A DNA stretch of 64,000 nucleotides, from contig CAYQEE010000002.1 of NCBI GenBank assembly GCA_964416445.1, positions 42,691 through 106,690 on the forward strand, in the 5' to 3' direction. Positions 8,854-56,554 of this stretch are shown here, one piece after another. The number at the start of each line of letters is the position of its first letter. The first letter of the stretch is position 1. This DNA is from an uncultured Gammaproteobacteria bacterium. Lineage in GTDB: Bacteria; Patescibacteriota; Microgenomatia; Levybacterales; UBA12049. The notes beneath the pieces were generated by a model. The model was not told the DNA's origin. It ran no database searches and worked only from the letters and a program-made list of their open reading frames with translations. Made by a program: the position numbers and the translations under genes.

Positions 8854-8907
8854 CTTTTTTATATATTATCCTTGACATTATATAAATAGTTAGTTTAAAG
8901 TTAATAT

Positions 8908-10995: not shown

Positions 10996-11012
10996 TAACT
11001 ATTACGAATAAA

Positions 11013-12771: not shown

Positions 12772-12905
12772 TACTAGTCACCTCCTCTTGAATCTTATTT
12801 TCCAATTGTATACCTTTGCTGGCTTTCCAGAGAAGGTGAACCTTGGACAATTCGTTTGGATAAGTATAGGGTAAAAGGCCTAAAATAGCAAATGCGACTT
12901 TTGAG

Positions 12906-12976
12906 TGGACCCGAGGGGAATCGAACCCCTTACTCTTCCATGCCATGGAAGCATGTTACCGGTATACCACGGGCCC
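12906..12976 (-). tRNA. tRNA-Ala (anticodon GGC)
   Basis: Minus-strand sequence GGGCCCGTGGTATACCGGTAACATGCTTCCATGGCATGGAAGAGTAAGGGGTTCGATTCCCCTCGGGTCCA folds as a cloverleaf. Anticodon loop AUGGCAU gives GGC. Acceptor G3:U70 is the Ala identity pair. The T-loop is GGTTCGATTCC. CCA is not encoded. Confidence 0.85.
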
Positions 12977-12993
12977 AGAAATAACTAATTCAG

Positions 12994-13066
12994 TGGACCT
13001 GAGCGGATTCGAACCGCTGATCTCCACAATGCGAATGTGGCGCATTACCAACTGTGCTACAGGCCC
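12994..13066 (-). tRNA. tRNA-Ala (anticodon CGC)
   Basis: Minus-strand sequence GGGCCTGTAGCACAGTTGGTAATGCGCCACATTCGCATTGTGGAGATCAGCGGTTCGAATCCGCTCAGGTCCA. Anticodon loop UUCGCAU gives CGC. G3:U70 is present. Confidence 0.85.
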
Positions 13067-22160: not shown

Positions 22161-23255
22161 TTATCGATAGGTTAAGGGTTTCTCGAGAAGAACTGGAGTT
22201 AAATAAACTCTATGTTTTTTTACATCAGTTTGACTCACGGTTAATGTGACTTTTTGACCTATCTCATATTTTGTTGTAGGTGGGATTTTTTCTTTTCTAA
22301 TAAACCCTTCTATACCTTCTTCTTCCATATCAATGACGACGCCAGTATCGCTAATCTTAGAGACTGTCCCTGTCACTTTCTGGTCAACTTTATATTGCTT
22401 TAAGATTTCTTCAAATGGGTCATTTGTTAACCGTTTAATTGATAGGTCAACTCTTTTTGCACTTGAATCAAAACCAACTACTTGAGCTTCAATAGTATCA
22501 CCTATTGCATAAATTGCTGCTAAATCTGAAACTTTATCCCATGAGACTTCTGATATATGAATAAATCCATCAAGAAATGTATCTTTCTTTTCTTTATCTT
22601 TAACCTGAATACTGAGAAATAATCCAAAAGGAGCAATATGTGCGACGATCACTGATACTTTTTCTCCTATTTTTAAAGATTTTGCAAGCTCATCAAAATC
22701 TTTAGATCCAAGCACGGTTTTTTGGGAAACAATAAGCTTATGTGTTTCAGGATGGATTTCTGCAATCATGACATTAAGAGTACTTCCAATAATTTCTTGG
22801 GTGTTTTGTTGAAATGATATGTGGGAATTTGGTAAAAATCCATCTAAACCTTCTTTGGTTTCTACAATATATCCTCCCTTAGTTGCATTCTTGATCATTA
22901 CATCAATTTTTTCATGATTTTTTTCTGTTTCAATAAGCTTATTCCACATATTACTGTCAATATACTTTCGGAGAGATACTACTGAATTACCCGTGTCAGA
23001 TTCTGGATTTAAAACGGTTACCGTTACTGTATCCCCAACCTTTAAAAGAGACATCATTGCTCGAATATATTTTCTTTCTTTCTCTAAGACAACTGCTTCG
23101 GTTTTTGCATTAATATCAAGTAATATTTCACTTGGAGTTAATTTGGTAATAACACCTTTAATTTCTTCTCCCTTATGTAATGTAATGAGTGGTGATTTAT
23201 GACTGGCCATTAATTCGGCCATTGAAGATGCACCTTTAGAAGATTTTGTATTCAC
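22161..23255 (-). CDS. rpsA: Ribosomal protein S1-like (short form, 4 S1 domains)
   Basis: 364 aa of repeated S1/OB-fold modules (…GEKVSVIVAHIAPFGLFLSI…; …GDTIEAQVVGFDSSAKRVDLSIKRL…). Confidence 0.6.
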   Translation of the reverse strand: MNTKSSKGASSMAELMASHKSPLITLHKGEEIKGVITKLTPSEILLDINAKTEAVVLEKERKYIRAMMSLLKVGDTVTVTVLNPESDTGNSVVSLRKYIDSNMWNKLIETEKNHEKIDVMIKNATKGGYIVETKEGLDGFLPNSHISFQQNTQEIIGSTLNVMIAEIHPETHKLIVSQKTVLGSKDFDELAKSLKIGEKVSVIVAHIAPFGLFLSIQVKDKEKKDTFLDGFIHISEVSWDKVSDLAAIYAIGDTIEAQVVGFDSSAKRVDLSIKRLTNDPFEEILKQYKVDQKVTGTVSKISDTGVVIDMEEEGIEGFIRKEKIPPTTKYEIGQKVTLTVSQTDVKKHRVYLTPVLLEKPLTYR

Positions 23256-23599: not shown

Positions 23600-26880
<3,281 letters not shown>

Positions 26881-27002
26881 AAATGTTAATATGCATTAAC
26901 ACTAAAAAGACCTTCTTCTCCTCACTTGTCAAAGAGCTTCTCTCATTATCATCTAAGGTAAACCCCCTCTTTCTAGGGGGCTTGCCCTAGATGATACTTA
27001 AG

Positions 27003-27075
27003 TGGACCGGAAGAGATTCGAACTCTCGACCTTCGCGATGCAAACGCGACGCTCTACCAGCTAAGCTACCGGCCC
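27003..27075 (-). tRNA. tRNA-Ala (anticodon UGC), at the 5' side of the 23S gene
   Basis: Minus-strand sequence GGGCCGGTAGCTTAGCTGGTAGAGCGTCGCGTTTGCATCGCGAAGGTCGAGAGTTCGAATCTCTTCCGGTCC. Anticodon loop UUUGCAU gives UGC. G3:U70 is present. Confidence 0.85.
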
Positions 27076-27307: not shown

Positions 27308-30300
27308 ATGATTGAATTAGATCAAGCTCCCGCACCAAAACCACTAGCAAAACCAGCAAAAGTTAAAGTAAAACCAATATCCGAAAGAGTAACTACAAGC
27401 GCTCGTGATACATTAGAGAAAATGTTTGGATTGGCTCCATTACTCCCCGCGCCGACGAAAACTCCTGATAAAAAAAACAAAAAACCACCTGAGGTGGATA
27501 TTACTCGCCAACCTACACAAAAATTGCCAAGTATAGATATCGAAGACCAACCGACTCAAATCTTACCACGTATAGATATGACCCGCCAACCTACACAAAA
27601 ATTGCCGAGTATAGATATTGAAGACCAACCGACTCAAATCTTACCACGAATTGAGCTATCTCTCCCTCATACTAATGAAGCTCCTGTACAGTTTGATTAT
27701 CCCCCCCTGCCACCAATGGAACCGCATCATCCCGAGAATGAACCTATTCAGCAAGAAGAACGTTTTCCAAATATGGATAATGAATACATGCAAAAGGCAC
27801 AGCAATATCTAGAGCCTGTTATGTTAGCACCAGCTTTAGAATCTACCTTTCAGTATCTTTCAGAAACAAGAGACCTTGATTTTGATTTTAACTCTGAACG
27901 ATATAAACAAATCCATGAAATTACAGATAAAATGAGCGAAGGATTTTTGTTTAAACCCAGAGTGGTTATTATGCGAAAAGGCAACGATGCATTCATTGGA
28001 TCTGATGGCACTATATTTCTTGCTCAAGGATTAATAAATAAACTTGATACGTTAGACGAAGTTGGAGCAGTTTTAGCTCATGAAATTAATCACCTTATTC
28101 ATATGGATGTTTGGCGTACTAACTCAAATAATGCACGACTATTAGATTATGAGGCCGTCGGTTGGTTACAAGAATTTGCAGCCGATATTGGAACAATGAA
28201 ACTCTTGGAAAAAGCTGGTCTTTCATCAGATGCATTTCGGACTGCAATTATGAAACTCGATTCAACAAAAGGTTTTACGCACCAAAGTGGTGGCATGCGT
28301 GCATTAGAAGTACAATTAGGACATGAAATTTGGAATTATGACACGAGTGATCAACCGCAACAACCAATGCCTGAGACATGGAAACAGCAAAGCAGGCTAA
28401 CAAACCTCGAAATTATAAATAATGGGAAACATAAGAGAGATTATGGTTACTACCCTGACGGAAAAAATCCAGAGGTATTTGCCGCATTAGCAAAGTTACA
28501 TAGAGTAGATTTAGAAAAACTTTACTCGCAAGATAATCGTCTTGATTATAACTTTGGGGAAAGTGTCATAAGATTTTTGTCTGAACGATTACGCACATAT
28601 GGATATACCGAAAGTCAAATCCTCACTTACTTTAGTTCATCATTAAAAGATGTAAATTTTGCAATTATAAAGGAGCCAGAACAGGCGGTTGACGTATTTG
28701 ATCATTTACATGAATATATTAACGATAAAACAAATGAAAAAATAGAAAACGACCTTTTTGGAATAAAACCGAACAAATGGCGTGAGGCAACAACATTTCC
28801 ACTTGCTAGCCTTCTTTATAAGCTTATGAAAAATATAAAAGTTGGGAATTCTTGGCACTCAGAAGAATTGCCAGTTACCGAAGATAGTTTTATTCATATC
28901 CTCCAAAAAATCTCAGAATTTGAAAAACTTAGTTTTGGTATTACTGCTGAAACGTATATTACAAAAGCAGTTCTTGAATTTATAGATTCCGAATTCTCTC
29001 ATGGCTGGTGGGAGAATGGAAAGGAAGTTAATTTACCAAAGACAAAAGCGTTTTTATACAAATTAAAGGCTGCTCATATTCCCATAAAAACAGAGCAAGT
29101 AATTAGCAACTATCAACTTGATTATGGTCTCTTAGCACGACATCATTTTAGAGATACTGATTATCTGAATATCATTGATTTTTTGGAAACAGAGTATGAA
29201 GGAAAACCTCGGACAAGTATTGAAGAGAAAATTGATACATTTTTCCAAGATATGTCTCGTGGACCAAAATCTCAAGAGGATATCAATAAACAAGGAGCTC
29301 AAGTAAAGGATTTTTTGTTGCGACTTAAGTTTGATTTTAATCGGGAAGAGATTCCTGAACATATCCGAATTACGTATATAACAGATATTTTAACTCGAAT
29401 TAATGGATCAAATTATGCAGTATCTGATAATATGGTAAAGTATTTAAAAAATAACTTTCCATCGGTTATCAGTTCTGGCTTAACTCCACCAGAATTGCTT
29501 TATCATAATCAGACACAAAATGGCGATACATTTATTATTTCACCTGATATGCAGGAAGATCTTATCACTTTATTAAAACCGGAGAATCTTGAACGATATA
29601 ATCAAAAGATTCAAGCAAATATACAAAAAATGATTAAATTTAACTTACAATTAATGACCATTAAAAGTCTCTTTAAAGAGGATTCACAAGGATACTACGA
29701 CACAATAGTCAAAATAATGAACGAAAGTGGTATTAACAGTAACAATATAGCTTTCTCTGAACTAATGCATTTATCCAGCCCACTTTTTAAGAATGATAAA
29801 TATTTTAACAATTATCAATTATTATTATCGGGTGGAAGTTTCGATAAAAGTGTTGCCTCAGTAGACTGTAATAACTATGATCTTCTAACACAACTACCAT
29901 TTATAAAAGACCTCATCGATAGAAATAAAGAAATTTCCGTAAATTCTATGGACGAACTCTATAATTATACAAATAATCTTACTATGTCTTTAGAAGGTAT
30001 ACCCGGTTTTCGAAGGGAATTATTTTCAGATTCTCTAACTACGTTAATTATCACAAAACCAATTCAAGAGGCATACTTACGATTACTAAAGCAAGGGATT
30101 CCTGAGAATCAACTCTCTGCACAATATAAATTTATTCGTGATTATTTTCCTGAAGACCCCGGTAAAAAGGGCTTTTTAAAAGAATACAATTTAAAAATCC
30201 TTTCATCCCCTAGCCTTTCACTCCAACATAAAATAAATCATTTACGTGAGAATATTCGATACATTGGACCTGAAGGACTTATTATTCTTGGTGAACAAAT

Positions 30301-32671
30301 ACAAACTATTGAAGAATACCGCCAATTTCGATACGCAATGGGTGAAGAAATTAAAAAATATTTATCTCCTTCTTCACTTTTAACACAAATAGCAGCAGCA
30401 GACTATTTATCAATGTATTTTAACCGGGGATTTGACTTGATCGCCTCTTGTGATTCGTCAGATGAAGCAAAAGTTCGCGAATCAACAAAGTTAGCCGAAG
30501 AATGGGTAACAAATTTCTTTACCCGTGTGTACTATTCTTCAGAACATCTTGAATATTTACATCGAGAAACAACAAAAGTTGAGTATGACCCTGTTAGTGG
30601 AAAAATCGTCCTTGATGATATAAGAAAAAAAGTATTCCGCTCATATCATGATCTTCTTAATATTTTACATGATTTAACACCTTCACAACGTTTTGCAATC
30701 GCGAGCAAATTACTTGTGGAGGAACCACATGGAGCACTCGTTACTTCGGAAAATAGATCTAAACTAGCAACCTATTTGAATGATGCTTTGCAAGCAAAAG
30801 GATTTATGAAGATTGCTCTCGAACAGGCAATTATTAATGGCGATCAAACACTTCTCGCTTTACCTGCTGCTGCAATGATTGGTCCATTACTATTTACTGG
30901 CTATGATGAACAAGCAATTAATTATTCAAAAGTCATGCAGACTGAAGTTGAAGATCCAACTCCAGAACAATATGCAAAAATCCCTTTTAGTAATCTTATT
31001 CCGAATCAAAGAATTCCCTCACTTATGCAATCAACTACTCAAGATATCGTCTTCTTTGGTAGAGAATATAAAAATTATCCACAATCAGTCGTTTACCAAT
31101 TGGCTGAAGGATCTCGAGAACGATATTACGAAATTTATGCATATCTTGAAAAACAAACACGAAATTTAGCAGGAAAACCAGAAACCCCTGAAAAACAAAC
31201 AGCGAGTTATAAAGGTGTCGAAGCAGTAATTAGTGGGATCCAAAAAGCGAGTGCATTAGGCGTACGGGCACTTCAATTAACAAGTCAATTTTTTCATTTC
31301 TCCTCTCCAGAATTAAACAAGCGACTCGCTGAAAGTTTTGATAATAATCCTGGTATGAATAAACTTGTTTTTTGGGAAAACTTATATAAGATGGCAGAAG
31401 ATGGTAAAACGAATCCAAAATATAAATTTTATGAAGACTTTGTCTGGACAGACCATAACGAACCTACGAAAGAAGGAGAATATAAACTGGTAAGTATTGG
31501 AGACGCACTTGGACAAGGAAGCTTATTTACTACTCGAGCAGCAAAAATAGTAGACCGGAATGGAAATATTAAAGACGTTGCTCTCAAGCAATTAAATCCG
31601 AATGCAGTGAAACATATCGAGGATTATTATAAATTAGGTATGAATACACTTGAACAAGTTATACTCCATGGTACTCCCGAAGAAGTTTATTATGCAAATA
31701 TGGCAAAAATGATTCTCGATTTATCCCAAAATTGGTGTTTAAAAGATATTAATGATAAAGATTTTGATAAAAATGATGAATTATTTAGAAGTGCAATCAT
31801 AGCTGTTTATAACCAACAAGAAGGAAATAATGCCGTTTTTGCTCCTGTTGTATACTTCAATCAATTTAATATGCAATGTGAAGAACTTGTTAGTAATGGA
31901 GTAACATTAAATAAATTTTTGCATAGCAATAAACCAGCTGCAGAAATCAAAAAAACAATTAATCAAGTTGTTAACTTCTATCAGTTTCAAATGCATGCAA
32001 AACCTGCTATGCAAATTGAAGGAAAGGATCATTACATTGTTCATTCAGATCCAAATATTGGAAATTTCATAGTAGGAAGAGATGACAATGCTGTAGCCGT
32101 TTTGGATAGAAGAATGTATCTTATTTTAAATGATACTCAGATGAACGTGGGAAGAAAAGTCCTCGAAGGTGCTTCACGAGAAGAACTATTTCAAGCTTTT
32201 ATTGAAGCAGTTTGTGAAGATAATAATATTCGAACTCCTGAAGAGAAACTAATAATTTCACGAAATGTATTATATTCCGTGGGAAATCATTTGGGATTAT
32301 CTGCAGCAACTTTAAAACGAGAAGAATCTTTTTCTGAAAAACTATCATTATTCGGTAGTTCGCTTCGTTCCATGCCAAAAGGTATACGTTCTCTTTCCGG
32401 AGCGATGAAACAACTCAATGAAACAGCATCTGATGAAACAGAACCAAATAAAGTTCAACGAGCATTGAGATTACAAAGAGAGCTAAATAAACTAAAAATT
32501 CTAGGAAAAAGAATAAGTAGAAAAAGTGTCAAATCTCTTGATTCAATGGAATTTCTCCAAATCGCTGTCGAAAAATTATCTCAACAACAAATACATGTCT
32601 CATTAAATACCCAGCTTGCTGTGAGAAATGCGTCTGCTATGAGAGAATTGCAACAAAGATATGCTGCGTAG
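27308..32671 (+). CDS. Giant (1787 aa) mosaic protein: low-complexity repeat N-terminus, M48-like zinc-metalloprotease motif region, C-terminal ABC1/UbiB-like atypical kinase domain
   Basis: …VVIMRKGNDAFIGSDGTIFLAQGLINKLDTLDEVGAVLAHEINHLIHMD…QEFAADIGTMKLL has the M48 HExxH + ExxAD pattern. C-terminal …SIGDALGQGSLFTTRAAKIVDRNGNIKDVALKQLNP… matches a Gly-rich loop/VAxK. …HSDPNIGNFIVGRDDNAVAVLDRRMY matches the ABC1 motif HADPHPGNxxV…DfG. No signal peptide or TM helix seen. Confidence 0.6.
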   Translation: MIELDQAPAPKPLAKPAKVKVKPISERVTTSARDTLEKMFGLAPLLPAPTKTPDKKNKKPPEVDITRQPTQKLPSIDIEDQPTQILPRIDMTRQPTQKLPSIDIEDQPTQILPRIELSLPHTNEAPVQFDYPPLPPMEPHHPENEPIQQEERFPNMDNEYMQKAQQYLEPVMLAPALESTFQYLSETRDLDFDFNSERYKQIHEITDKMSEGFLFKPRVVIMRKGNDAFIGSDGTIFLAQGLINKLDTLDEVGAVLAHEINHLIHMDVWRTNSNNARLLDYEAVGWLQEFAADIGTMKLLEKAGLSSDAFRTAIMKLDSTKGFTHQSGGMRALEVQLGHEIWNYDTSDQPQQPMPETWKQQSRLTNLEIINNGKHKRDYGYYPDGKNPEVFAALAKLHRVDLEKLYSQDNRLDYNFGESVIRFLSERLRTYGYTESQILTYFSSSLKDVNFAIIKEPEQAVDVFDHLHEYINDKTNEKIENDLFGIKPNKWREATTFPLASLLYKLMKNIKVGNSWHSEELPVTEDSFIHILQKISEFEKLSFGITAETYITKAVLEFIDSEFSHGWWENGKEVNLPKTKAFLYKLKAAHIPIKTEQVISNYQLDYGLLARHHFRDTDYLNIIDFLETEYEGKPRTSIEEKIDTFFQDMSRGPKSQEDINKQGAQVKDFLLRLKFDFNREEIPEHIRITYITDILTRINGSNYAVSDNMVKYLKNNFPSVISSGLTPPELLYHNQTQNGDTFIISPDMQEDLITLLKPENLERYNQKIQANIQKMIKFNLQLMTIKSLFKEDSQGYYDTIVKIMNESGINSNNIAFSELMHLSSPLFKNDKYFNNYQLLLSGGSFDKSVASVDCNNYDLLTQLPFIKDLIDRNKEISVNSMDELYNYTNNLTMSLEGIPGFRRELFSDSLTTLIITKPIQEAYLRLLKQGIPENQLSAQYKFIRDYFPEDPGKKGFLKEYNLKILSSPSLSLQHKINHLRENIRYIGPEGLIILGEQIQTIEEYRQFRYAMGEEIKKYLSPSSLLTQIAAADYLSMYFNRGFDLIASCDSSDEAKVRESTKLAEEWVTNFFTRVYYSSEHLEYLHRETTKVEYDPVSGKIVLDDIRKKVFRSYHDLLNILHDLTPSQRFAIASKLLVEEPHGALVTSENRSKLATYLNDALQAKGFMKIALEQAIINGDQTLLALPAAAMIGPLLFTGYDEQAINYSKVMQTEVEDPTPEQYAKIPFSNLIPNQRIPSLMQSTTQDIVFFGREYKNYPQSVVYQLAEGSRERYYEIYAYLEKQTRNLAGKPETPEKQTASYKGVEAVISGIQKASALGVRALQLTSQFFHFSSPELNKRLAESFDNNPGMNKLVFWENLYKMAEDGKTNPKYKFYEDFVWTDHNEPTKEGEYKLVSIGDALGQGSLFTTRAAKIVDRNGNIKDVALKQLNPNAVKHIEDYYKLGMNTLEQVILHGTPEEVYYANMAKMILDLSQNWCLKDINDKDFDKNDELFRSAIIAVYNQQEGNNAVFAPVVYFNQFNMQCEELVSNGVTLNKFLHSNKPAAEIKKTINQVVNFYQFQMHAKPAMQIEGKDHYIVHSDPNIGNFIVGRDDNAVAVLDRRMYLILNDTQMNVGRKVLEGASREELFQAFIEAVCEDNNIRTPEEKLIISRNVLYSVGNHLGLSAATLKREESFSEKLSLFGSSLRSMPKGIRSLSGAMKQLNETASDETEPNKVQRALRLQRELNKLKILGKRISRKSVKSLDSMEFLQIAVEKLSQQQIHVSLNTQLAVRNASAMRELQQRYAA
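27506..27661 (+). repeat. 78-bp perfect-to-near-perfect tandem duplication (2 copies) in the 5' part of the 1787-aa gene
   Basis: cgccaacctacacaaaaattgcc[a/g]agtatagatat[c/t]gaagaccaaccgactcaaatcttaccacg appears twice in tandem. It encodes TRQPTQKLPSIDIEDQPTQILPRI ×2. Confidence 0.85.
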
Positions 32672-32682
32672 ATTACCTCATT

Positions 32683-34605
32683 CTAAAGTGCTTGGATAAT
32701 TTTTTTCACATTCGTAGTATTCAATTCGTCACTAAATCTTTTATATTCTTTGAATGTAGGTTTTCGATGCTTTCTGCGTTCATATTCAGCGACAATTTGA
32801 TCTAAGTTAGCTTTCCTCATTCGAAAATCACTACTTGAACGCATTTTTTGAAGAGTTATATGTAATGGCTCACCTATAGGGTATACCCTTTGCGCATATT
32901 TATCTGTAGCATATGAGTTACGTCCCAGGAGTACTTTATACAAACGACTCACATCGGCAGTTTCACCTAAAGCATTTCTTTTTTCTGATCTATCAAATTC
33001 GTCAACCATAAGATTTTCTGATAATTGTGTAAAAGAATAACGAGCAAGTACATGATCTCTAATCATTGACACAACATCTACCCATGCATGATCTGTATTG
33101 TAATCTGCTCTTCCTAATGCTTCATTTCTTAAAAGACGCATATCTTCACGAAGTTGGGTTATCCAGTTAGCATTTTCCGCATCATAAAGTACATGTTCCT
33201 GAGCCATACGTCCTCGAATATCAGCTAATTGAACTCCTTGGGGGATTTGTTTATAGAGACGATAATAATAGGCGAATCCCCAGGGATCAGGTTTTCGATG
33301 TGCTTCTTGTTCATACAGATGTTCCACTTCTTCCTTTTCTCTTATATTTTCCGCATGTTCAGGCCTAACGATCAACTGATCAAATAAAATGCCTAACGTT
33401 TGTGGACTACCTCCAGGACCACCGGAGAGAAAATTTCGAATCTCAGGAATTTGTAATGCAGCACGTCTATTTGGTAATCGAATACCCAATAATAAGTCAT
33501 ACATTTGAATTGCTTCATCAAGATTAATCATATTTTCAGCTCTCTGCAACGAACCACCGCCGAGAAAATTATCTGATTCATCAAAATTATTATCTGGATC
33601 CATTGCAGTTTGATGATCTCTAAAAAATTTATGCCAAACAAAACCATCTCGCGCATTTAACCCATCACGAAATTGTTTACTTCTAATAGCTTCTTCTTGT
33701 ATTTGTGCAAGTGTCATCCCTTGCGCTTGCTTTTCAAGCATAAGTGCTTCATCCTCTTGATCTAAAGGCCATGTTTTAAAAAATCGATACCACGACGTAA
33801 ATGCACTATCATCATTCCGTATATGCCAAGAATCCGCGCCTAAAATCTTCCCTTCAGTTTTTACCGGAGGTACTGAGCCATGCTGTTCCATCATTGAGGT
33901 AATTAATTGAACATCACGCTGTTTCATTCTTTCCATCCCATCATCCGTTGCTGCTTCATGAACCATCCGAAGACAGTTCGCAGCAACGACGGTGAAGTCA
34001 CTAATATGCATTGTTTGTCCAAAGGCAGGGAGAATATATTGATGCTCTAATTTTGCTTCAAGATCTAAAATATCAAGTATTTCTCTTCTCATAATCCAAC
34101 TTTCATCTAAGCTTTTTCCCGGTACTAAATTTTCTAAAGGTAACGCATTAATTCTTTCATTATATTGCTCGGGAGTTTCCACTCCCCTTGGAGGAAACAG
34201 ATGAACAACTGCGCGTAATTGCTCAGGAGATAATTGATGATACCCAGTCCGAGCAAAATACTCTCCAATCGCATACGCTGCATGAGAATACACTTCCCCA
34301 GATTGTACCGCATTTTCTAATTCAGGAGATAATTGTTGCAACCAATTACTATCTTGTTGGTCATAGGTAAAAAGTGCTTTTTGATCTTGAGGTCGTGGAT
34401 ACAAATGAGAATTAATCTGTTGTGCTGAAAATTGTTTGTCTGCCGCAGCTTGTAACGCGTTTCCCCATCCTCTACCCCGCTCATCTAATGATAGATTTGC
34501 ATTTATACAAGTTTTTATGCCAGTATTAATTTTCTCCGTTAAAAGATTTTCTCGATGTATCAACTGTGGACCAGTTTCTACGCCTTGTGATAAAAAATCA
34601 GACAT
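32683..34605 (-). CDS. Hypothetical 640-aa protein, paralog of the adjacent 510-aa protein (shared ~250-aa N-terminal domain)
   Basis: The two are alignable by eye, e.g. AAYAIGEYFARTGYHQLSPEQLRAVVHLFPP vs AAFAILEYFLRSDYHNLNEEQINSFSSMFPP, and ESWIMRREILDILDLE vs ETWVMRREILDMLEVS. No known domain recognised. No TM or signal. Confidence 0.6.
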   Translation of the reverse strand: MSDFLSQGVETGPQLIHRENLLTEKINTGIKTCINANLSLDERGRGWGNALQAAADKQFSAQQINSHLYPRPQDQKALFTYDQQDSNWLQQLSPELENAVQSGEVYSHAAYAIGEYFARTGYHQLSPEQLRAVVHLFPPRGVETPEQYNERINALPLENLVPGKSLDESWIMRREILDILDLEAKLEHQYILPAFGQTMHISDFTVVAANCLRMVHEAATDDGMERMKQRDVQLITSMMEQHGSVPPVKTEGKILGADSWHIRNDDSAFTSWYRFFKTWPLDQEDEALMLEKQAQGMTLAQIQEEAIRSKQFRDGLNARDGFVWHKFFRDHQTAMDPDNNFDESDNFLGGGSLQRAENMINLDEAIQMYDLLLGIRLPNRRAALQIPEIRNFLSGGPGGSPQTLGILFDQLIVRPEHAENIREKEEVEHLYEQEAHRKPDPWGFAYYYRLYKQIPQGVQLADIRGRMAQEHVLYDAENANWITQLREDMRLLRNEALGRADYNTDHAWVDVVSMIRDHVLARYSFTQLSENLMVDEFDRSEKRNALGETADVSRLYKVLLGRNSYATDKYAQRVYPIGEPLHITLQKMRSSSDFRMRKANLDQIVAEYERRKHRKPTFKEYKRFSDELNTTNVKKIIQAL

Positions 34606-39078: not shown

Positions 39079-42000
39079 TTATTGTAAGGTAAGGTCTTTA
39101 GTTTTTTCATACAAGGTAATAAAAAGGAATAATTTATCATCAACGTCTGGCGCACTAAGATTAATTAACGGTCGTTGTGATAAAAATTTCGCTAATAAAA
39201 TTGATACTCCTCGAGATAAATTAGGATCAATTGATAAATCTGGGAATAAAACAGCTAATGCATTTACTCTATCTATGAGATTAATATCAAGGGATGGCTC
39301 TTCTTTCATACTTTCCTGAGGAGGATTCTTTTTAAGCCATACGACCATCTCTCTAAACCATCCGGCAGCTGTAGATTCACTTACGCCTGCAAGAAGAGCT
39401 TCATCCTTAAATTCTCTTGATCTGTTTAACGCGAGCGAGCGAGATTCTGCTGCTATTGGGGAGAGATGTTCATCAGCTAAAAATAGCTCGAGGTTCATTT
39501 GATCAACAGCAACAAATCCTTCTGGAGATTGATTCAGCTGGGCTAATTGTTCAAGTGATGGATTGAGAGGAGTATAAGGTGGAGCAGATGGTGCTGTATT
39601 TGGTTGACTCTCTACTGGTTGTTGCACTGGTCTTTGAGGTTCTGGTGTTAAAAGATTATCAAGAGCCTGTTGCAGTTGAGGCGTTATCGGAACATCTGCA
39701 TTTTGAGGTTGCGATCCTCCACCCGGAAGAGTTGGAGTTTCAACAGGTGGTACTCCCCTTCCATTTACTTCTTGAGAAATAGGTGCAACTGGAGAAACTT
39801 GGGGGGTATTAGGCCGAGGATAAGTAGGAACATTCATTCCATTCCCCGATCCTGCTTCAATAGGCGTTTGCGGTAGTGGAATACCTCCTACTGGTTGATT
39901 AAGTTGCGATGGCCCAGAAGCTTGCCGATTCCCTGGCATTGGAATATTAACTCCATACTGATACGGATTATTTACATTAATTTGTGGTTGTGGTGGAATA
40001 TTTGGGCTACCGGGAGGAGGAGTAATATTTGGACCATATTGATAGGGATTATTAGGAGTTTGCGGTACGTTTGGTGATGGCTGAATATTAGCGCCTGATT
40101 GGTAGGGAGAATTTGGAGCCAAAGGTGGTGTGGGAACATTCCCAACTGCTGCCGGTATTGGTGGTACATTCGGAGTAGTTGGAACCGGTGGAAGATTTGG
40201 GTTACCTCCATTATTTTGAGGCCCCGGCGCTTGATTAATAGGAGGAATATGGACTTTCTTTTTCTTTGGTGGTTCAGGAGGAGGAAGTCCAATACCAGGG
40301 AGATTTTGTTGATTATTTATATTTGGGCTAATGGGAGCATTAAGTGCAGCATTTGCGGGAGATAACGCATTCGCATTATAAGCGTTATTGGGAATTTGAG
40401 GCCTATTCTGTCGTGCAAACCCACTCGAACTGTATGGACTATTTGGGTTATAAGGACTATACGGATTATATGGACTATATGGACTCGGAATAATTGGAGG
40501 TGGAACTTGCGGAATGGGAGGAAGGCCTGGTGGAATTGTCGGACCGGGTGTTCGATCAACTAAGTCTCGCGGGTTAAAGATTAAAGGAAGAATAGGAGCA
40601 TCTATTGGTCCACCTGGCCCTGGTATGTTTTGCGGTACAACTCCAAAATCAATTTCGTTTATTGGTGTCGTAATTGCAGTTCTTGGTACAATAGAGACAG
40701 TTGCAGTAGATGTTTCGTTAAAGGGACGTGAAGCAAAGAAATGCATTGTAATTCCTTTTGTTCCATGTTGGATCCAATTAGAAGATTCTATAATCTGTCC
40801 ATTCGAATCAGTTGGAACACCCGCACCAACCCAGGCAACGAGTTCATTCGGCGTTCCTTGAGGAGTTTGTAATTCCGGAGGAAGAATTGCTGTACCATCC
40901 TTGCCACATGGTAACCAAAGTTCTTGACCACTTTTCAAACGTACAACCATAACCATTTTATCGTGTGGAATTTGGGGAGGATGGAGTAAATCGGTAATAT
41001 TTTTGTTTACATCAATAATATGTTGTAATTCTGTATCGTTATGATTTCCTAAGAATTTTGTATACTCAGAAATCAATGCTTGATATTTATCAGGATGGGT
41101 AAGCGCGTCTTTCGGCAATAATCCTGCTTCAACAAGACCTTGTATACGAGACTCAAGACCAAATTGCTCTGCGGTAATTGGATTTGCTAATACTCCCCCA
41201 AAGTTTAATGCCCCTTTATGGTTAAACCAGTTGCCTCCATTCGTCCAATCACGACCATCTCCCCAATGTAAATCTAATTCTAATCCTGCATACTGCTGAG
41301 GTACTCCTCCATTCATTCTTGTTAAATTGGTATAGTCACTAAATATATGATGATAACTCTCACCATAGTTTTGTGATTCAATATATGCTCCATATTCAGT
41401 AAGTAAATCTGGATGATGTTGGTAGAGATTATTCCAAGCATCGTTGAGTTGTTGAACTGTTTTAGGATTGTCTACAACTGCCCATAAATTTGCACTTGGA
41501 TCTGAAGCATTTTGAGGATCGAGAACGAGATTTCCATTTGCATCATGAGACATAATGAAGGTATAGTCATGTCCATTATGATCAATAACTGTTCGCATAT
41601 GGGACAAATCAACATTTTTGACATGATAACCGTCGGGTAAATAAAAATTAATTCCTGATTTATCGTGAATAAGATGACCATAATTTTGTTCTGATTGAAT
41701 TATTTTAAGTATTTCACTATCGTTTCCATGATTTGTGAGATCCCATTGTTTGAAGGCAGTCTCAACATGGCCTTTTTGTAATAATGCATGTTCTTTTGTC
41801 GCTATTTGAAAGTCAGAAGGCAATACATCATGACTGCTTAAAGGTGCACCTAAATGCCCTCCATTAATATCACTAATATATTGATAATTATATGTTTTGC
41901 CAGTAACATGATCGATAAAGGTAATTCTATGCTGTCCTGTTAAAGACGCGTCCCATCCTTTCGGTAAATTTAGCTGTAAATTGTTTGCCACTTTATCAAT

Positions 42001-43887
42001 ATGAAATCCTGGTCCCGAGGAGATAAGATTTGGTTGACGATGAAATATTGTATCAATTGTATTTCCTACGTTATGAACCCCAGCCGCAATTGATTGTCCA
42101 GCCTCACCAATTACTTGTCCTGGATGAGATACTGTTTGCACAGCATCGCTCACTAATTGTCCCGGATGTTGTGCAATCGTCTCAATAACCGTTGGTGCAA
42201 CAACTTGATGAAGTACATCTCTTTCAAATAAGGCAATTGCTTCTTGATCAATAAGTCCAAGAGTAATTGCTGAGATAGCAGCAATACCTGCCTGTCTTCT
42301 TCCTTGCGCACTAATATATGCTTTTGCACGTTTATCCTTTATTTCAATATCTTTTTGAATTTTATCCTTCCAGGCCTGTTTAAATCGCTCTATTAATGTA
42401 TTGACATCCGCTTCAGCCATCCCATCATCAATAAGCGATTGACGCAGTGCTGTGGCTTCATGCTCTAATTCTTTTTCTTTGGGTTTTATACTTTTATCTT
42501 CAAAATTAATAAGTCCTTTATTTAATAATCGATAATCTAATCTTGTGATAATCTCAGCTGCTCGTTCAGCGACCTTATCTCTATCAGATCCATGATTATA
42601 CGTTACCGTATGCAAAGCATTTTTCAATTCAGCAACTGATTTTCGCTGAATACCATATAGATCAGCTCCTCCTCCATTCATAAGCTCGCTATATGACGCC
42701 ATTTCATATTCAGTTGCTCGTAACGCTTCACGACGTTTTACTTCTCCCCTGGCAAGAAATTCTTTAACAAACTGAGGAGTTATTTTTGAAGGAATTTTCT
42801 TATATTCTCGGTTGAGTAAATAATTTTTTGCTCTCCCCGGCGCTAATTTAGCAATTCCTCTCAGAATTAATCCTGGAGGCTTAGGTGCTCTGGGACCAGG
42901 TGGAGTAGCATAATCTCCACCATATTCCCCTGCAGCTCGTCCTTTTTGAATATCTTTTTTCGCCTCATACCTTCCTCTGAAGCCAGCTATAACCACACCA
43001 ATTGTCGTACCAACAGCAGCTCCTGCAACAGGAATAAATCTTCTCGCCGCACCGGAAACAAGTCGCGAAGCGCCAAAAGCAACAATTGAACAGGCAAGTG
43101 CTGCACCAGTAGGACTTAAGAGATATCTCATTCTGGACCGTTGTGACCAACTGATAAACTTATCAAATTTACTCAGTTCAATACCTGTTGCATGAGCCCA
43201 TTTTGGATTCGCGATAAGAATGTTAATATTTTTATCAATTTCAGCTAAGGCATATTTATTCGTATCGATATCCTGTTTACATCGTTGGCCAAATTTTAAA
43301 AATTCGCCTGTCGCAGCAAATTCATCCGCTACGGTTGCAAAAGGATCATCTTTGTTATATATCTTCTTAACAAATTCAGATAGATTTGGGTCCTTACTGT
43401 CTGCGTATCTTCGAGCAAATTCCCGAAGGTAATCGTGCATTGTTGTCTCATCGGTAATTCTTCCATCTATCACTGGTTTCACCAGTTCTTCAATAATTTT
43501 TTCTTTCAAAACACCTTGCGCCTTATGAATATCACGAGCTCCTTCTGTCAATTGAGAGGTATATTGCTCGCGAACATGGTGAACTGCCTCTACTTCTTCT
43601 CTATCATGTTGTACCTTTTGTGCCGCTGCTACAGCGGTTGTAGCATCCATAGTAAGGAAGGAATTACCGGCTGCCTTCATGCGCTCTCGTAAATCACGAG
43701 CATTCTTGTAAATATAATAATCTTCAAAGGTGTGTAAACCAATTTTCTTCCAAAATCCTGCGCTCTTCATATCTCTTTCCCATTGAGCACGAGCTTCATA
43801 ATTTGCCCTTTTTGTAAGTTCTTGGCTCTTGTTGGCAATTACTCCAGTATTCTCTGGAGTTACTGGTATATCGGGTGTTACGACCAT
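39079..43887 (-). CDS. Giant (1602 aa) membrane protein: coiled N-terminal region, two TM helices (~aa 255-300), His-rich middle, long proline-rich repetitive region (PYSPYNPYSPYNP; NPYQYGxNI repeats), acidic C-terminal domain
   Basis: ORF track. TM stretch LACSIVAFGASRLVSGAARRFIPVAGAAVGTTIGVVIAGF. A ~450-aa Pro/Asn/Gln-rich low-complexity region. No recognisable catalytic motif. Confidence 0.55.
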   Translation of the reverse strand: MVVTPDIPVTPENTGVIANKSQELTKRANYEARAQWERDMKSAGFWKKIGLHTFEDYYIYKNARDLRERMKAAGNSFLTMDATTAVAAAQKVQHDREEVEAVHHVREQYTSQLTEGARDIHKAQGVLKEKIIEELVKPVIDGRITDETTMHDYLREFARRYADSKDPNLSEFVKKIYNKDDPFATVADEFAATGEFLKFGQRCKQDIDTNKYALAEIDKNINILIANPKWAHATGIELSKFDKFISWSQRSRMRYLLSPTGAALACSIVAFGASRLVSGAARRFIPVAGAAVGTTIGVVIAGFRGRYEAKKDIQKGRAAGEYGGDYATPPGPRAPKPPGLILRGIAKLAPGRAKNYLLNREYKKIPSKITPQFVKEFLARGEVKRREALRATEYEMASYSELMNGGGADLYGIQRKSVAELKNALHTVTYNHGSDRDKVAERAAEIITRLDYRLLNKGLINFEDKSIKPKEKELEHEATALRQSLIDDGMAEADVNTLIERFKQAWKDKIQKDIEIKDKRAKAYISAQGRRQAGIAAISAITLGLIDQEAIALFERDVLHQVVAPTVIETIAQHPGQLVSDAVQTVSHPGQVIGEAGQSIAAGVHNVGNTIDTIFHRQPNLISSGPGFHIDKVANNLQLNLPKGWDASLTGQHRITFIDHVTGKTYNYQYISDINGGHLGAPLSSHDVLPSDFQIATKEHALLQKGHVETAFKQWDLTNHGNDSEILKIIQSEQNYGHLIHDKSGINFYLPDGYHVKNVDLSHMRTVIDHNGHDYTFIMSHDANGNLVLDPQNASDPSANLWAVVDNPKTVQQLNDAWNNLYQHHPDLLTEYGAYIESQNYGESYHHIFSDYTNLTRMNGGVPQQYAGLELDLHWGDGRDWTNGGNWFNHKGALNFGGVLANPITAEQFGLESRIQGLVEAGLLPKDALTHPDKYQALISEYTKFLGNHNDTELQHIIDVNKNITDLLHPPQIPHDKMVMVVRLKSGQELWLPCGKDGTAILPPELQTPQGTPNELVAWVGAGVPTDSNGQIIESSNWIQHGTKGITMHFFASRPFNETSTATVSIVPRTAITTPINEIDFGVVPQNIPGPGGPIDAPILPLIFNPRDLVDRTPGPTIPPGLPPIPQVPPPIIPSPYSPYNPYSPYNPNSPYSSSGFARQNRPQIPNNAYNANALSPANAALNAPISPNINNQQNLPGIGLPPPEPPKKKKVHIPPINQAPGPQNNGGNPNLPPVPTTPNVPPIPAAVGNVPTPPLAPNSPYQSGANIQPSPNVPQTPNNPYQYGPNITPPPGSPNIPPQPQINVNNPYQYGVNIPMPGNRQASGPSQLNQPVGGIPLPQTPIEAGSGNGMNVPTYPRPNTPQVSPVAPISQEVNGRGVPPVETPTLPGGGSQPQNADVPITPQLQQALDNLLTPEPQRPVQQPVESQPNTAPSAPPYTPLNPSLEQLAQLNQSPEGFVAVDQMNLELFLADEHLSPIAAESRSLALNRSREFKDEALLAGVSESTAAGWFREMVVWLKKNPPQESMKEEPSLDINLIDRVNALAVLFPDLSIDPNLSRGVSILLAKFLSQRPLINLSAPDVDDKLFLFITLYEKTKDLTLQ

Positions 43888-45789: not shown

Positions 45790-47361
45790 TTATTCTAAAT
45801 CTTCTCTTTTTGCATGAAGATAAACAAATAATTCCTCAAAAAAGCCGAAAATAACTTTAAATGGAGCTTCTATAAGAAAATCAAAGATAAAGATAAGAAT
45901 ATTAATTTGAGAAATTCCATCAGTTAATCTCATACCGACTTTAATAATTGGTAAGAAAAGAATATCTATAAAAGGCGTTAATAACCCTTGCCCATTTTCT
46001 ACTGTATAAGCTTGTGCGGTTAGATTAATTCGATAAGATAGAAACGAAACAATTGTTATGAAAAAGATAAATACTGTTTGACTTACTGGATTAAAATTCA
46101 ATTTCGTTAATACCCAAATCATTAATCCAAAACTTAAACCAAAGAAAAGAATCCATAATAATGCAAAAATGCTAGTAGTAAGTGATCTTGTCTTTTTTGG
46201 TTTAATATACAATGTTAAATTCGGTGAAAGTTTCGGATGCTCTTCAAAAAGAATTGAGCGTGCTTTTGCTAAAATTCTTCGGGAATTAGATAACCCTGGT
46301 GTTTTAATAAAAAAGCTAACAATTATCATGAGTAATGGAGGGGCAGCTATATTAATAATTAATCCTGTCCAAATAATATGGCCATAGGTAATTCTGTCAT
46401 ATGTTCCTTCAACCGCAAATGCAAAAATAACTTTTGTTAAAAGTAAAAAGAAAACACTTCGAACAATCGCAGTTCGAACTTTAGAAGATATACTTTTATA
46501 CCGAGCATTACAAGCTGCAAAAATTGCTGAACCAAATTTTTCTTGATTTTCAATTAACGCAGGTATCGCATCTTTATGGGCATGTAATATATCCTCTAGA
46601 ATAAAAAACGTCGGAGTCTGTCTCTTTACAAATACATAAATTTTCTCTTTAAGTTGATAACTCAATTGATAGTTTATTTCTTTATATCCTCTCAAAAAAT
46701 TCTTTGCAATTTCATCTACACTACTCTCATTTAAAGGAGGAAAAATTTGTAAGAACAAATGATAGCGAAGAAATGCTAAATCATCTTTCGCTAACGCCCG
46801 ATGAACAGCAATAAAAACTTGAACATTCTTCGTATCTTCCGTATCATCCACGATCTCGATATGTTCTTTTAAAATATGATACATAAAATTATTCATTGCA
46901 TCTTTATCTTTATTTGGGTTTAATTCTTTAGCAATTTGACAAGACATTAATTGAAACATCCACGTATTGAGAGTTTTATCGGGAATTTTATGATAAGACA
47001 AAATTTTCTCTTTTAATTCAAGATATCTATCAATAACATGGGACGTCCGAATAATTAAACTTTGAGGAAGACTATTATCCGGAAAATATCGAGCCCAAAC
47101 AAGTTCACGAAGCAAAGGTTCTGCATTTTTTGCTCCTGATCCTCCTAGTAATAATCTTCTTTTCAAAATACGTTCTATAGCATTTTTCAAAATGATTTCT
47201 TCTTCTTGATAATCCATAGCATTTCTCAATTTTTCATACCAAGATGCTAATTCAGAAACGAAACGATTGACGGAAATTTTAGGATCTGTATTGATTTCAG
47301 ATTTTGATTGGAAAATGCTTATTACGGCACGTGCAAGAGGAGAAAGCTGTTGTACATTCAT
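45790..47361 (-). CDS. Hypothetical protein with ~300-aa soluble N-terminal domain and C-terminal multi-TM region
   Basis: 523 aa. Hydrophobic helices in the last ~200 aa. No motif recognised. Confidence 0.5.
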   Translation of the reverse strand: MNVQQLSPLARAVISIFQSKSEINTDPKISVNRFVSELASWYEKLRNAMDYQEEEIILKNAIERILKRRLLLGGSGAKNAEPLLRELVWARYFPDNSLPQSLIIRTSHVIDRYLELKEKILSYHKIPDKTLNTWMFQLMSCQIAKELNPNKDKDAMNNFMYHILKEHIEIVDDTEDTKNVQVFIAVHRALAKDDLAFLRYHLFLQIFPPLNESSVDEIAKNFLRGYKEINYQLSYQLKEKIYVFVKRQTPTFFILEDILHAHKDAIPALIENQEKFGSAIFAACNARYKSISSKVRTAIVRSVFFLLLTKVIFAFAVEGTYDRITYGHIIWTGLIINIAAPPLLMIIVSFFIKTPGLSNSRRILAKARSILFEEHPKLSPNLTLYIKPKKTRSLTTSIFALLWILFFGLSFGLMIWVLTKLNFNPVSQTVFIFFITIVSFLSYRINLTAQAYTVENGQGLLTPFIDILFLPIIKVGMRLTDGISQINILIFIFDFLIEAPFKVIFGFFEELFVYLHAKREDLE

Positions 47362-55501: not shown

Positions 55502-56554
55502 TTATGACATTACATACTTAACCCCTTTAGTTACTCCATGTTTTTTAATAATTCCTGCTTTGATTAATGCTTGAAGGTCTAATAAAACACTATCTTCAGA
55601 AATCATCGGAAATAATAGTCTAAAAGCTTTATTCTCCAAATAACCTATTTTTTGAATATATTCAATAATCTTCAACTGTCTTTCAGAAAGCATCAAAGGT
55701 TGACCGCCTAACTTCTCTTTCAATTTTACATCTACTGAGACGCTTTCAACCTTTTCTTTAATTTTTGTTAATTCTATTGCTAGTCCTTCAGTGAAGTAAC
55801 TAAGCCATTTGGTTAAATCTCCATCATGTCTTTCGACACTTTGTAAGCTTTCATAATATCGATTTGCATCCATATCAAAGTATTCTTCAAGAGAAAAAAA
55901 TTTCCGAATATCATATCCTTCTTCAAATAAAATAAGTGTGGAAAGTGCACGGGCAACTCTTCCATTGCCGTCAACAAAAGGATGAATACGAACTAATTCA
56001 TAATGAACAATACCACTCTTCAAAACAATATGAACTTCATTTTCACCCATTGTATTAATAAATTCTATTAAGTCAGTAATTTGAAGTGGTACTGCCAAAG
56101 CAAGAGGAGGCCGAAAAACAACATCCCCACTCATATTATTTTTTATAACCACTTGTGTACTACGATATACCCCACACGTCTCTGGAGGTAAAATCTTTTC
56201 CACGGTAAGTTTATGAAGGTATAACAGTAAATCTTCTGTAATCTTTTTTTCTTTACTTTCGCTTCTCCATTTTCCAATATACTCAATTACTTTACGATAA
56301 TTAATTACTTCTTGAATATCCCGTTCCCTAGCAACTACTGACTGTCCTAGAACTACTCTTTCAGCTTGGGATAGATCTAGCTCATTTCCTTCGATATGCG
56401 TACCATAATGTACCGATCGAATTAATGCTTCATTTTGAAACTTTTTTTCATAATATGGCAATAACGGAGCGTGCCTAATTACTTCTCGACATGCTTCTAT
56501 TATTCCTATGTTTCTTAATATATTATTGGTAATAGTAAACTTTGGAGTATACAT
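55502..56554 (-). CDS. Fic/Doc family protein (AMPylation-type) with C-terminal wHTH
   Basis: Fic motif HPFVDGNGRVARAL. 350 aa. Confidence 0.85.
   Translation of the reverse strand: MYTPKFTITNNILRNIGIIEACREVIRHAPLLPYYEKKFQNEALIRSVHYGTHIEGNELDLSQAERVVLGQSVVARERDIQEVINYRKVIEYIGKWRSESKEKKITEDLLLYLHKLTVEKILPPETCGVYRSTQVVIKNNMSGDVVFRPPLALAVPLQITDLIEFINTMGENEVHIVLKSGIVHYELVRIHPFVDGNGRVARALSTLILFEEGYDIRKFFSLEEYFDMDANRYYESLQSVERHDGDLTKWLSYFTEGLAIELTKIKEKVESVSVDVKLKEKLGGQPLMLSERQLKIIEYIQKIGYLENKAFRLLFPMISEDSVLLDLQALIKAGIIKKHGVTKGVKYVMS

Follow-up and report, generated by a model that had tools for sequence, protein, structure and literature searches.

The window analysed here, a stretch of 64,000 nt from contig CAYQEE010000002.1 of assembly GCA_964416445.1, contains an open reading frame (ORF) at positions 27308-32671 of the forward strand that encodes a protein of 1787 amino acids (aa). 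In this protein an M48-type zinc metalloprotease domain is followed by an alpha-helical, solenoid-like region, a conserved family-specific module and a divergent protein-kinase-like domain of the UbiB/ABC1 type. The identity of the two enzymatic domains, M48 and UbiB-like, is assigned with high confidence. To judge from sequence conservation, strong selection throughout the family keeps two intact-looking catalytic centres together in a single soluble polypeptide, and both are likely to be active. We propose that the protein is a soluble, coupled two-enzyme machine acting as a nucleotide-regulated protease, and assign this statement as a whole a probability of about one half.

The reading frame extends over 5364 nt without interruption, exactly as a preliminary description of this DNA had delimited it in calling a single polypeptide, and two independent Logan assemblies, derived from two sequencing runs, give the same gene call. 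Two related loci, L003 (positions 321-5110) and L019 (positions 6317-11407), show the gene as two adjacent ORFs divided within the middle region: M48 and the beginning of that region lie on one of them, and what remains of it lies on the other together with the UbiB-like domain. The split could be due to a frameshift, a sequencing error or a genuinely divided gene. Such loci would be expected if the fusion were an assembly or gene-calling artefact joining two separate genes, but the uninterrupted frame, its identical recovery from two sequencing runs and the presence of the full-length architecture in more than 100 independent representatives and on more than a dozen independent contigs have effectively refuted this explanation already.

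The protein belongs to a large family that word-indexed homologue searches under-sampled, returning five and then three matches. When 1.84 billion cluster representatives were searched exhaustively with a profile, 491 reached E <= 1e-3 and 168 reached E <= 1e-30. Cluster representatives share at most 50% identity, and conservation was counted over about 120-150 of them. Most family matches are 1500-1700 aa long with the kinase-like domain at the C-terminus, and, of 121 full-length representatives, 119 have both the M48 and the UbiB-like blocks. A stand-alone version is not evident among the best 150 matches, in which the short sequences look like fragments at contig ends. Across 18 metagenome and 5 genome loci, a complete gene encoding 1480-1699 aa was found on every contig with enough room to hold it. 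Near-invariant sites are the HExxH motif, E289, H325, R331, the GxGS loop, K1427 (K or R), D1581, N1586 and D1600. Near-invariance of these motifs among so many divergent representatives is not a matter of chance, and the nearly universal architecture indicates selection acting on the combination of the domains, not on the separate parts. The gene has no tightly conserved operon partner in the loci compared, its neighbours being housekeeping genes that differ between loci; any partnership must therefore lie within the one polypeptide.

At the domain level, residues from about 173 to 366 are identified by profile comparisons and a predicted fold as an M48 protease. The Pfam family PF01435 (Peptidase_M48) matches aa 200-295 with 39.4 bits (E = 7.4e-10) against a gathering cutoff of 20.3 bits, and five close homologues score 30.6-53.5 bits, all above the cutoff; NCBIfam yields only weak HtpX matches for the window protein. 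Alignment of a 14-sequence family profile with E. coli BepA by hhalign (91% probability, E = 1.1e-6) places H258-E259-x-x-H262 on H136-E137-x-x-H140 of BepA, and E289, within Q-E-F-A-A-D, on BepA position 201, within N-E-Q-E-A-D. The zinc ligands of BepA are H136, H140 and E201, and a fourth ligand, H246, is part of an active-site plug with the motif H-P-x4-R, which is conserved across PF01435 (PMC7950410). The plug of M48 enzymes is autoinhibitory and must move before the enzyme can act (PMC7950410). In the window protein H325 and R331 have the spacing H-x5-R and lie 63 residues past HExxH, with the proline of the plug replaced by Q, G or M in the family; among 114 full-length members, only 2 show the strict pattern H-P-x4-R, whereas 106 show the relaxed one. 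H325 is accordingly a predicted variant of the autoinhibitory plug histidine, and all four zinc-coordinating positions appear to be present. For aa 165-1298, an AlphaFold2 model built from 48 sequences (mean predicted local distance difference test score, pLDDT, 79.9; predicted template modelling score, pTM, 0.76) has high-probability matches in the PDB only to BepA (6ait and 6sar, probability 0.97-1.00) and to 3c37, the latter with a template modelling score of 0.57 over 216 columns at 19% identity.

The C-terminal domain, as profiles and a structural model describe it, has diverged from canonical UbiB proteins and represents a UbiB-like variant. As the window copy alone goes undetected, this assignment is drawn from family-level profiles, structure prediction and hhalign. 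In profile scans of PDB sequences, a full-length phmmer search gave no significant match and a six-sequence C-terminal profile gave only non-significant kinase matches. All five close homologues match the Pfam ABC1 family colinearly but below its threshold, at 15.4-22.7 bits against a cutoff of 22.9 bits. Three or four of these five matches cover most of the profile, starting at 24-39 and ending at 222-236 of its 244 positions; the match of homologue P0003 is limited to the catalytic-loop end. A precomputed PF03109 match is recorded on one distant family member. A profile of 24 sequences retrieved only protein-kinase-like entries from among PDB sequences, including APH(9) at E = 5.5e-4, Cdc7 and, with weaker scores than APH(9), two mycobacterial ABC1-family structures. 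The same profile aligns with E. coli UbiB over 259 columns (hhalign probability 95.9%, E = 5.8e-9), against 6.7% over 44 columns for the control, the E. coli APH-like kinase SrkA. A second AlphaFold2 model, made separately from the first and covering aa 1299-1786, has a mean pLDDT of 85.3 and a pTM of 0.82. Its top eight Foldseek matches in the PDB are COQ8A and MSMEG_1954 (E from 3.4e-7 to 3.4e-4), headed by human COQ8A with E = 3.4e-7 over about 340 aligned columns. A solved chain of Rv3197 ranks twelfth, behind three PRPK chains, and is followed by PRPK/Bud32 and ordinary eukaryotic protein kinases.

Both domains had been named in the preliminary description. Its M48 assignment, made from the HExxH and ExxAD motifs, agrees with the Pfam score, the alignment of zinc ligands and the similarity of the first model to BepA and 3c37, and the motifs, which it placed about 1100 residues upstream of the kinase core, lie about 1140 residues upstream of the Gly-rich loop. 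Its ABC1/UbiB-like kinase domain lacks a Pfam match in the window copy but is supported at the level of the family by the ABC1 matches of the homologues, the UbiB alignment and the resemblance of the second model to UbiB-family structures, COQ8A above all. The core motifs it listed (Gly-rich loop, VALK, HSDPNIGN and DRR) are all present as described, although the domain that carries them proves to be a non-canonical UbiB.

Features specific to UbiB proteins are a GQ-alpha helical N-terminal extension, the KxGQ motif, an Ala-rich loop and an N-lobe insert with an ExD motif (PMC4718504). UbiB modules have been described as ATPases in which KxGQ and the Ala-rich loop restrain kinase activity (bioRxiv 10.1101/149823; PMC4718504). 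As aligned here, the fusion family departs from the literal form of these last two motifs and retains their key residues. The position of KxGQ is occupied by RxLQ, with arginine in 131 and lysine in 8 of 140 ungapped rows, glutamine in all 140, and the glycine replaced. The glutamine of KxGQ has been proposed to position water for ATP hydrolysis in COQ8 (bioRxiv 10.1101/149823), and since this catalytically implicated residue is kept, RxLQ represents a variant of KxGQ and not its loss. Where UbiB has its Ala-rich loop, the family has a Gly-rich one, G-x-G-S (of 145 ungapped rows, 136 have G1402, 144 have G1404 and 144 have S1405). Within the catalytic loop, D1581 is found in 148 and N1586 in all of 151 rows. 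The model shows a helical extension of five helices before strand beta1 (model residues 3-82, aa 1301-1380), which aligns with UbiB from residue 55 onward, and three long helices in the stretch from beta3 to beta4, for which a canonical kinase has a single helix. Conserved acidic residues (D1480, D1483 and D1490) form a cluster that falls near E-L-N...E of UbiB in the hhalign alignment, in a register uncertain by about one residue. Within this uncertainty, the additional beta3-beta4 helices and the acidic cluster are consistent with the N-lobe insert and ExD motif of UbiB proteins. In COQ8A, a single change of alanine to glycine in the Ala-rich loop reverses the nucleotide preference, which favours ADP over ATP, and switches on autophosphorylation. 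By analogy, the natural Gly-rich loop suggests a module that prefers ATP, and the family may surpass canonical UbiB proteins in ATP competence and in kinase-like character.

The two catalytic domains are separated by two regions of different conservation. The solenoid-like region (aa 367-954) has column conservation of about 0.23-0.36, with one block at 0.05, and its Foldseek matches are exclusively low-probability, generic solenoids (Ski3, Ctr9, importins). The module preceding the kinase-like domain (aa 955-1290) is better conserved, with near-invariant K975, G987, G990, W1066, D1115, K1134 and R1150. Pfam gave no match to the middle region in the window protein and five homologues, and no relative of the pre-kinase module was detected among PDB sequences or in UbiB. 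From these comparisons the module is regarded as specific to the fusion family.

The window protein and 106 of 115 full-length relatives lack any 19-residue segment whose mean Kyte-Doolittle hydropathy reaches 1.6. Inspection of the N-termini of the window protein and of 25 relatives, all of them hydrophilic, revealed no signal peptide. A membrane or secreted localisation was rejected on the strength of these two results, and we infer a soluble, cytoplasmic fusion protein.

The host is probably a bacterium of the Patescibacteria, or Candidate Phyla Radiation (CPR), as gene content and related loci indicate. The window has a guanine-cytosine content of 35% and encodes an archaeal-type UMP kinase (PyrH; 58906-59613, minus strand; TIGR02076 E = 2e-52, where the bacterial type reaches 2e-11) as well as a dnl1-type ATP-dependent DNA ligase (53686-55467, minus strand), which together are consistent with a Patescibacteria-like lineage. 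One related locus belongs to a metagenome-assembled genome (MAG) named Candidatus Levyibacteriota, of the Patescibacteria group, and another lies on a 1.15-Mb contig. The Rho protein of the window is 54% identical to E. coli Rho; identity of about 54% is typical of Rho between phyla and too low for a gammaproteobacterium. A gammaproteobacterial origin of the window was rejected on the combined evidence of Rho, the archaeal-type PyrH and the ATP-dependent ligase. CPR bacteria generally lack respiratory chains and quinone synthesis, so that in a CPR host a role of the fusion protein in quinone (coenzyme Q) biosynthesis would be unlikely.

According to the proposed mechanism, both active sites would be functional and would cooperate as one cytoplasmic machine. 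The solenoid would recruit the substrate, and the nucleotide state of the UbiB-like module, through ATP binding and hydrolysis or through phosphotransfer, would control substrate engagement, displacement of the plug, or both. The product would be a nucleotide-regulated protease whose nucleotide-handling module has a kinase fold and not an AAA+ fold; no AAA-type domain was matched by Pfam or NCBIfam over the 1787 aa. A broader and more doubtful interpretation, in which we place much less trust, is that the family constitutes a new class of nucleotide-dependent protease, with a UbiB-type kinase-fold module gating M48, and provides Rosetta-stone evidence of an ancient partnership between M48 and ABC1/UbiB proteins. 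Such a partnership would still operate between separate proteins in plastoglobules (PGM48 and ABC1Ks), and perhaps in mitochondria. The idea of a nucleotide-regulated protease is supported by three published parallels: the joining of M48 to a helical-repeat domain in BepA, the association of PGM48 with ABC1K proteins in plastoglobules, and ADCK1, which is described as acting through the protease YME1L1 (PMC6553794). A link between OMA1 and UbiB was also considered and found unsupported by the one paper checked.

Several considerations weigh against a nucleotide-regulated protease. The fusion demonstrates co-localisation and not coupling; the communication between the active sites is a proposal, the relative placement of the domains being outside the two separate models. 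Canonical UbiB proteins act on lipids and small molecules at membranes, not on proteins (bioRxiv 10.1101/149823), and as the fusion family has no membrane anchor, the analogy with UbiB may not transfer. The window protein has no match to Pfam ABC1 (PF03109) even at E <= 10. The evidence placing the host in the CPR is indirect, and the labels of four related MAGs read Gammaproteobacteria or Pseudomonadales. The principal competitor of our proposal is two tethered enzymes working independently, with the UbiB-like part serving as a lipid or small-molecule ATPase or kinase, in the manner of COQ8, UbiB or the macrolide-binding Rv3197/MSMEG_1954, perhaps on lipids scavenged from the host of the CPR cell, and the M48 part performing unrelated proteolysis. 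The solenoid would then merely co-locate the two, for example at the inner face of the membrane. The activities described so far for UbiB proteins are lipid- or phenol-stimulated ATPase, lipid extraction and antibiotic binding, without protein phosphorylation among them; the best sequence-profile match in the PDB is a small-molecule kinase, APH(9); and the KxGQ domain of COQ8, to which the helical extension of the present family is equivalent, mediates peripheral membrane binding (bioRxiv 10.1101/149823). Independent enzymes fit less well with an architecture retained in nearly all full-length representatives and with no free-standing version evident among the best 150 matches, with the missing membrane anchor, and with a Gly-rich loop that departs from the canonical signature of the UbiB lipid ATPases. 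We consider independent action possible, at appreciably lower odds than a coupled machine.

Less probable still is a secreted or contact-delivered effector or toxin of an episymbiotic bacterium, with protease and kinase acting on the host cell in the way known from large multidomain effectors of other bacteria that live with hosts. The large size of the protein, the disordered, repeat-bearing and fast-evolving N-terminus of the window copy, the genome features of a reduced, host-associated lineage, the occurrence of the kinase-like domain inside giant proteins of 2344-6575 aa and the loose recurrence of Fic-domain genes nearby would all suit such a role. Against it stand the lack of a signal peptide in all inspected sequences and of strongly hydrophobic segments in most relatives, as well as the locus-variable housekeeping neighbours, with no linked secretion-system or immunity-like gene. 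Architecture and length are, moreover, very uniform over about 500 clusters, which is unlike typical fast-shuffling effectors, and the PADLOC comparison described below gave no match. That one or both domains are catalytically dead and serve only as a scaffold is highly improbable: UbiB-family and other atypical kinases are often considered pseudokinases (PMC4718504), and the kinase-like domain of the window is too divergent for Pfam, but the zinc-binding, catalytic, ATP-binding and phosphotransfer residues are near-invariant in the family and all present in the window copy. The nucleotide-regulated protease remains our preferred interpretation. Coordinates of the features discussed are collected in the table.

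Table. Features of the fusion gene and its protein, with positions in the window and the basis of each assignment
Feature	Residues (aa)	Position	Strand	Basis
Complete ORF, M48-solenoid-UbiB-like fusion protein		27308..32671	+	Uninterrupted ORF; identical calls in two Logan assemblies
Pro/Gln-rich low-complexity N-terminal leader	1-165	27308..27802	+	Composition; alignment with homologues
Imperfect 78-bp tandem duplication	64-89 and 90-115	27495..27650	+	Tandem Repeats Finder (TRF); 72/78 nt, 25/26 aa
M48-type zinc metalloprotease domain	173-366	27824..28405	+	Pfam PF01435; hhalign to BepA; Foldseek 6ait, 3c37
HEINH, zinc-binding HExxH with catalytic Glu	258-262	28079..28093	+	HExxH in 119/121; BepA alignment
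EFAAD, E289 predicted third zinc ligand	289-293	28172..28186	+	E in 121/121, D in 120/121
HQSGGMR, putative variant of M48 plug motif HPx4R	325-331	28280..28300	+	H325 in 111/121, R331 in 116/121
Poorly conserved all-alpha solenoid-like region	367-954	28406..30169	+	AlphaFold2 model; low conservation
Conserved family-specific pre-kinase module	955-1290	30170..31177	+	Near-invariant residues; no relative detected
Divergent UbiB/ABC1-type protein-kinase-like domain	1299-1786	31202..32665	+	hhalign to UbiB; AlphaFold2; Foldseek; sub-threshold ABC1
RALQ, positional equivalent of UbiB KxGQ	1320-1323	31265..31276	+	Column-for-column with UbiB K-F-G-Q
LGQGSL, Gly-rich nucleotide-binding loop	1401-1406	31508..31525	+	Aligned to UbiB L-A-S-A-S-I
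VALK, ATP-anchoring lysine	1424-1427	31577..31588	+	K in 124, R in 21 of 145; UbiB V-V-I-K
HSDPNIGN, catalytic loop HxDxxxxN	1579-1586	32042..32065	+	Aligned to UbiB H-A-D-M-H-P-G-N
DRR, metal-binding Asp, DFG equivalent	1600-1602	32105..32113	+	D in 150/150, R1601 in 146/150; UbiB I-D-C-G

The N-terminal leader contains 17.6% proline and 8.5% glutamine, against 4.9% and 5.4% in the whole protein, as expected from the Pro/Gln-rich N-terminus noted in the preliminary description. The 26-aa duplication reported there as perfect is real but imperfect: in the register given for it (78 bp twice, 27506-27661) the two copies agree at 69 of 78 nt and at 23 of 26 aa, fewer positions than in the best register shown in the table. 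Tandem Repeats Finder places the repeat at 27497-27648 with a period of 78, 1.9 copies, 94% matches and a score of 276, and the 78-bp unit itself is a degenerate repeat of 39 bp (13 aa). Most of the leader is an insertion relative to homologues, the repeat-bearing stretch being absent from all five close homologues aligned, and of the six close homologues in the alignment only the window copy has the duplication. The leaders of most family members, although otherwise variable, share upstream of the M48 domain a short motif of the approximate form D-(D/E)-F...L-(K/R)-P-L (consensus 'DE.{8}L.PL', alignment columns about 125-150), which is degenerate in the window copy and might be a docking, processing or degron motif.

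The UbiB-like domain of the family is also embedded in the giant proteins P0138 (5745 aa), P0150 (6575 aa), P0133 (3306 aa), P0143 (2690 aa) and P0126 (2344 aa). P0133, P0138, P0143 and P0150 still match the M48 block and lack the middle region of the family; P0126 lacks both.

All-against-all clustering of ORFs from about 25 loci recovered only Fic and a PBP as recurrent neighbours, each in three loci. The Fic protein of the window (55502-56554) recurs near the family gene in L008, L022 and L026, and a GT4 glycosyltransferase (window positions 60551-61684) in L003 and L005. A 523-aa protein without a Pfam match (45790-47361, minus strand) recurs in L027 (13121-14689), at 50% identity and about 2 kb downstream of the family gene, and in L024 (56-1738), at 24% identity and directly upstream of it. 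These recurrences, of window genes that lie further from the fusion gene, suggest related genomes with loosely conserved gene order and not a functional operon; for the 523-aa, GT4 and Fic genes, loose gene order or a weak functional link may be responsible. The fusion protein and its four downstream neighbours have no match in PADLOC-DB at E <= 1e-3, and a known anti-phage defence system was rejected on this ground.

The fusion gene is divergent from a minus-strand rRNA cluster with the order tRNA-Ala(UGC)-23S-5S. The cluster has no adjacent 16S gene, since the fusion gene begins 232 bp past the tRNA. The 23S rRNA gene (23602-26877, minus strand) measures 3276 nt against a model of 2925 positions and is thus about 350 nt too long. 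An intron-like stretch within it (24014-24277, minus strand) gives a full-length match to the group I intron model RF00028 at 29.3 bits (E = 1e-4), below the gathering score of 50. Three tRNA-Ala genes with the anticodons GGC, CGC and UGC (12905-13066 and 27002-27075, minus strand) occur within 15 kb, two of them adjacent. An S1-domain protein (22161-23255, minus strand) has four S1 repeats and a weak, sub-cutoff match of the linker-histone H1/H5 kind in the N-terminal part, at aa 83-139 (E = 1.7e-3). The only Pfam matches of a 2231-aa ORF (2158-8853, plus strand) are to phage-integrase SAM-like domains, two or three of them at its N-terminus (PF02899, E = 2e-13; PF13102), with no recombinase catalytic domain recognised and about 2000 residues left without assignment. 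Immediately downstream of the fusion gene and convergent with it are two large ORFs of 1602 aa (39079-43887, minus strand) and 640 aa (32683-34605, minus strand) that have no match in Pfam or PADLOC and flank an acyltransferase-like gene and a gene for a 927-aa HAD hydrolase.

Precomputed Pfam annotation of the six closest family members covers the M48 part only, because the ABC1-like domain falls under the Pfam threshold. Literature searches for the combination of M48 with ABC1/UbiB, or for UbiB in Patescibacteria, returned nothing relevant, in keeping with the remark of the preliminary description that the combination is not known as a described family; the orthologues and their genomic context, to which it had also pointed, form a large conserved family in varying neighbourhoods. 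Within the literature that could be searched, there is no description of the fixed M48-solenoid-UbiB-like architecture, of the variant RxLQ motif and Gly-rich loop, or of the pre-kinase module. Both enzyme domains belong to known superfamilies, and the protein is not a categorically new system.

The role of UbiB/ABC1 proteins, an ancient and disease-linked family (COQ8A ataxia), has long been disputed between kinase, ATPase and lipid extractor. The fusion family offers what appears to be a soluble, membrane-free UbiB-like domain permanently joined to a protease whose regulation is known in outline, a natural Gly-rich loop, and probably quinone-less hosts; in combination, these features set the fold's core chemistry apart from coenzyme Q biology. 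The fusion suggests a testable link between UbiB-type modules and proteolysis and may help to explain UbiB enzymes; if the UbiB module does gate M48, it would provide a tractable soluble system for settling the biochemistry of the UbiB family. For annotation, the family is large, well conserved and unannotated as such, with about 500 clusters at 50% identity and each gene occupying about 0.4-0.5% of a genome of about 1 Mb, while present annotation recognises only the M48 part of the protein.

The nearest relatives of the protease domain are the soluble BepA (M48 with tetratricopeptide repeats, TPR) and Geobacter Q74D82 (PDB 3c37), together with HtpX, Ste24/ZMPSTE24, OMA1 and PGM48. The fusion protein shares with the M48 family the HExxH motif, the glutamate ligand in ExxAD and, as putative counterparts of the plug residues, a histidine and an arginine. 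BepA pairs its M48 domain with a helical-repeat domain for substrate recognition (PMC7950410), and a helical-repeat region likewise comes after the protease in the fusion protein. In contrast to BepA, the fusion family has a deletion of about 37 residues between the HExxH and Glu helices, corresponding to the flexible lid region of BepA, and its putative plug reads H-[Q/G/M]-x4-R instead of H-P-x4-R. The fusion protein is predicted to be cytoplasmic and soluble, not periplasmic or membrane-embedded, and bears a kinase-like domain.

The C-terminal domain has the fold of the UbiB family, represented by E. coli UbiB, COQ8A/ADCK3, Rv3197/MSMEG_1954 and the plant ABC1K proteins, and keeps the invariant glutamine, the serine of the loop, the VAIK lysine, a catalytic loop of the HxDxHxGN type and the metal-binding aspartate. 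It differs from these proteins in reading RxLQ for KxGQ, GxGS for AxAS and ID-R for the DFG-like ID-C/F-G, in lacking the transmembrane segment typical of UbiB and COQ8, in scoring below the Pfam ABC1 cutoff, and in always standing behind about 1150-1300 residues made up of M48, solenoid and the novel module. The fusion family also probably resides in organisms without quinones. In proposed function only, the protein resembles FtsH and Lon, which likewise combine a nucleotide module and a protease in one polypeptide, the protease of FtsH being a zinc metalloprotease as well. Its nucleotide module is of the kinase fold, its protease is M48 and not M41 or S16, and ring assembly is unsupported by evidence. 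A parallel to the pairing itself is the plastoglobule, where M48 (PGM48) and ABC1/UbiB-family (ABC1K) proteins operate at one site. Transcription links PGM48 to ABC1K7 and ABC1K3, with which it is co-expressed, and plastoglobules show enrichment of PGM48 when ABC1K6 over-accumulates. The plant proteins are separate polypeptides on a lipid droplet of a eukaryotic organelle, and the ABC1Ks of plants carry the canonical KxGQ and Ala triad; by analogy, the fusion could be a covalent version of a partnership of the PGM48-ABC1K kind.

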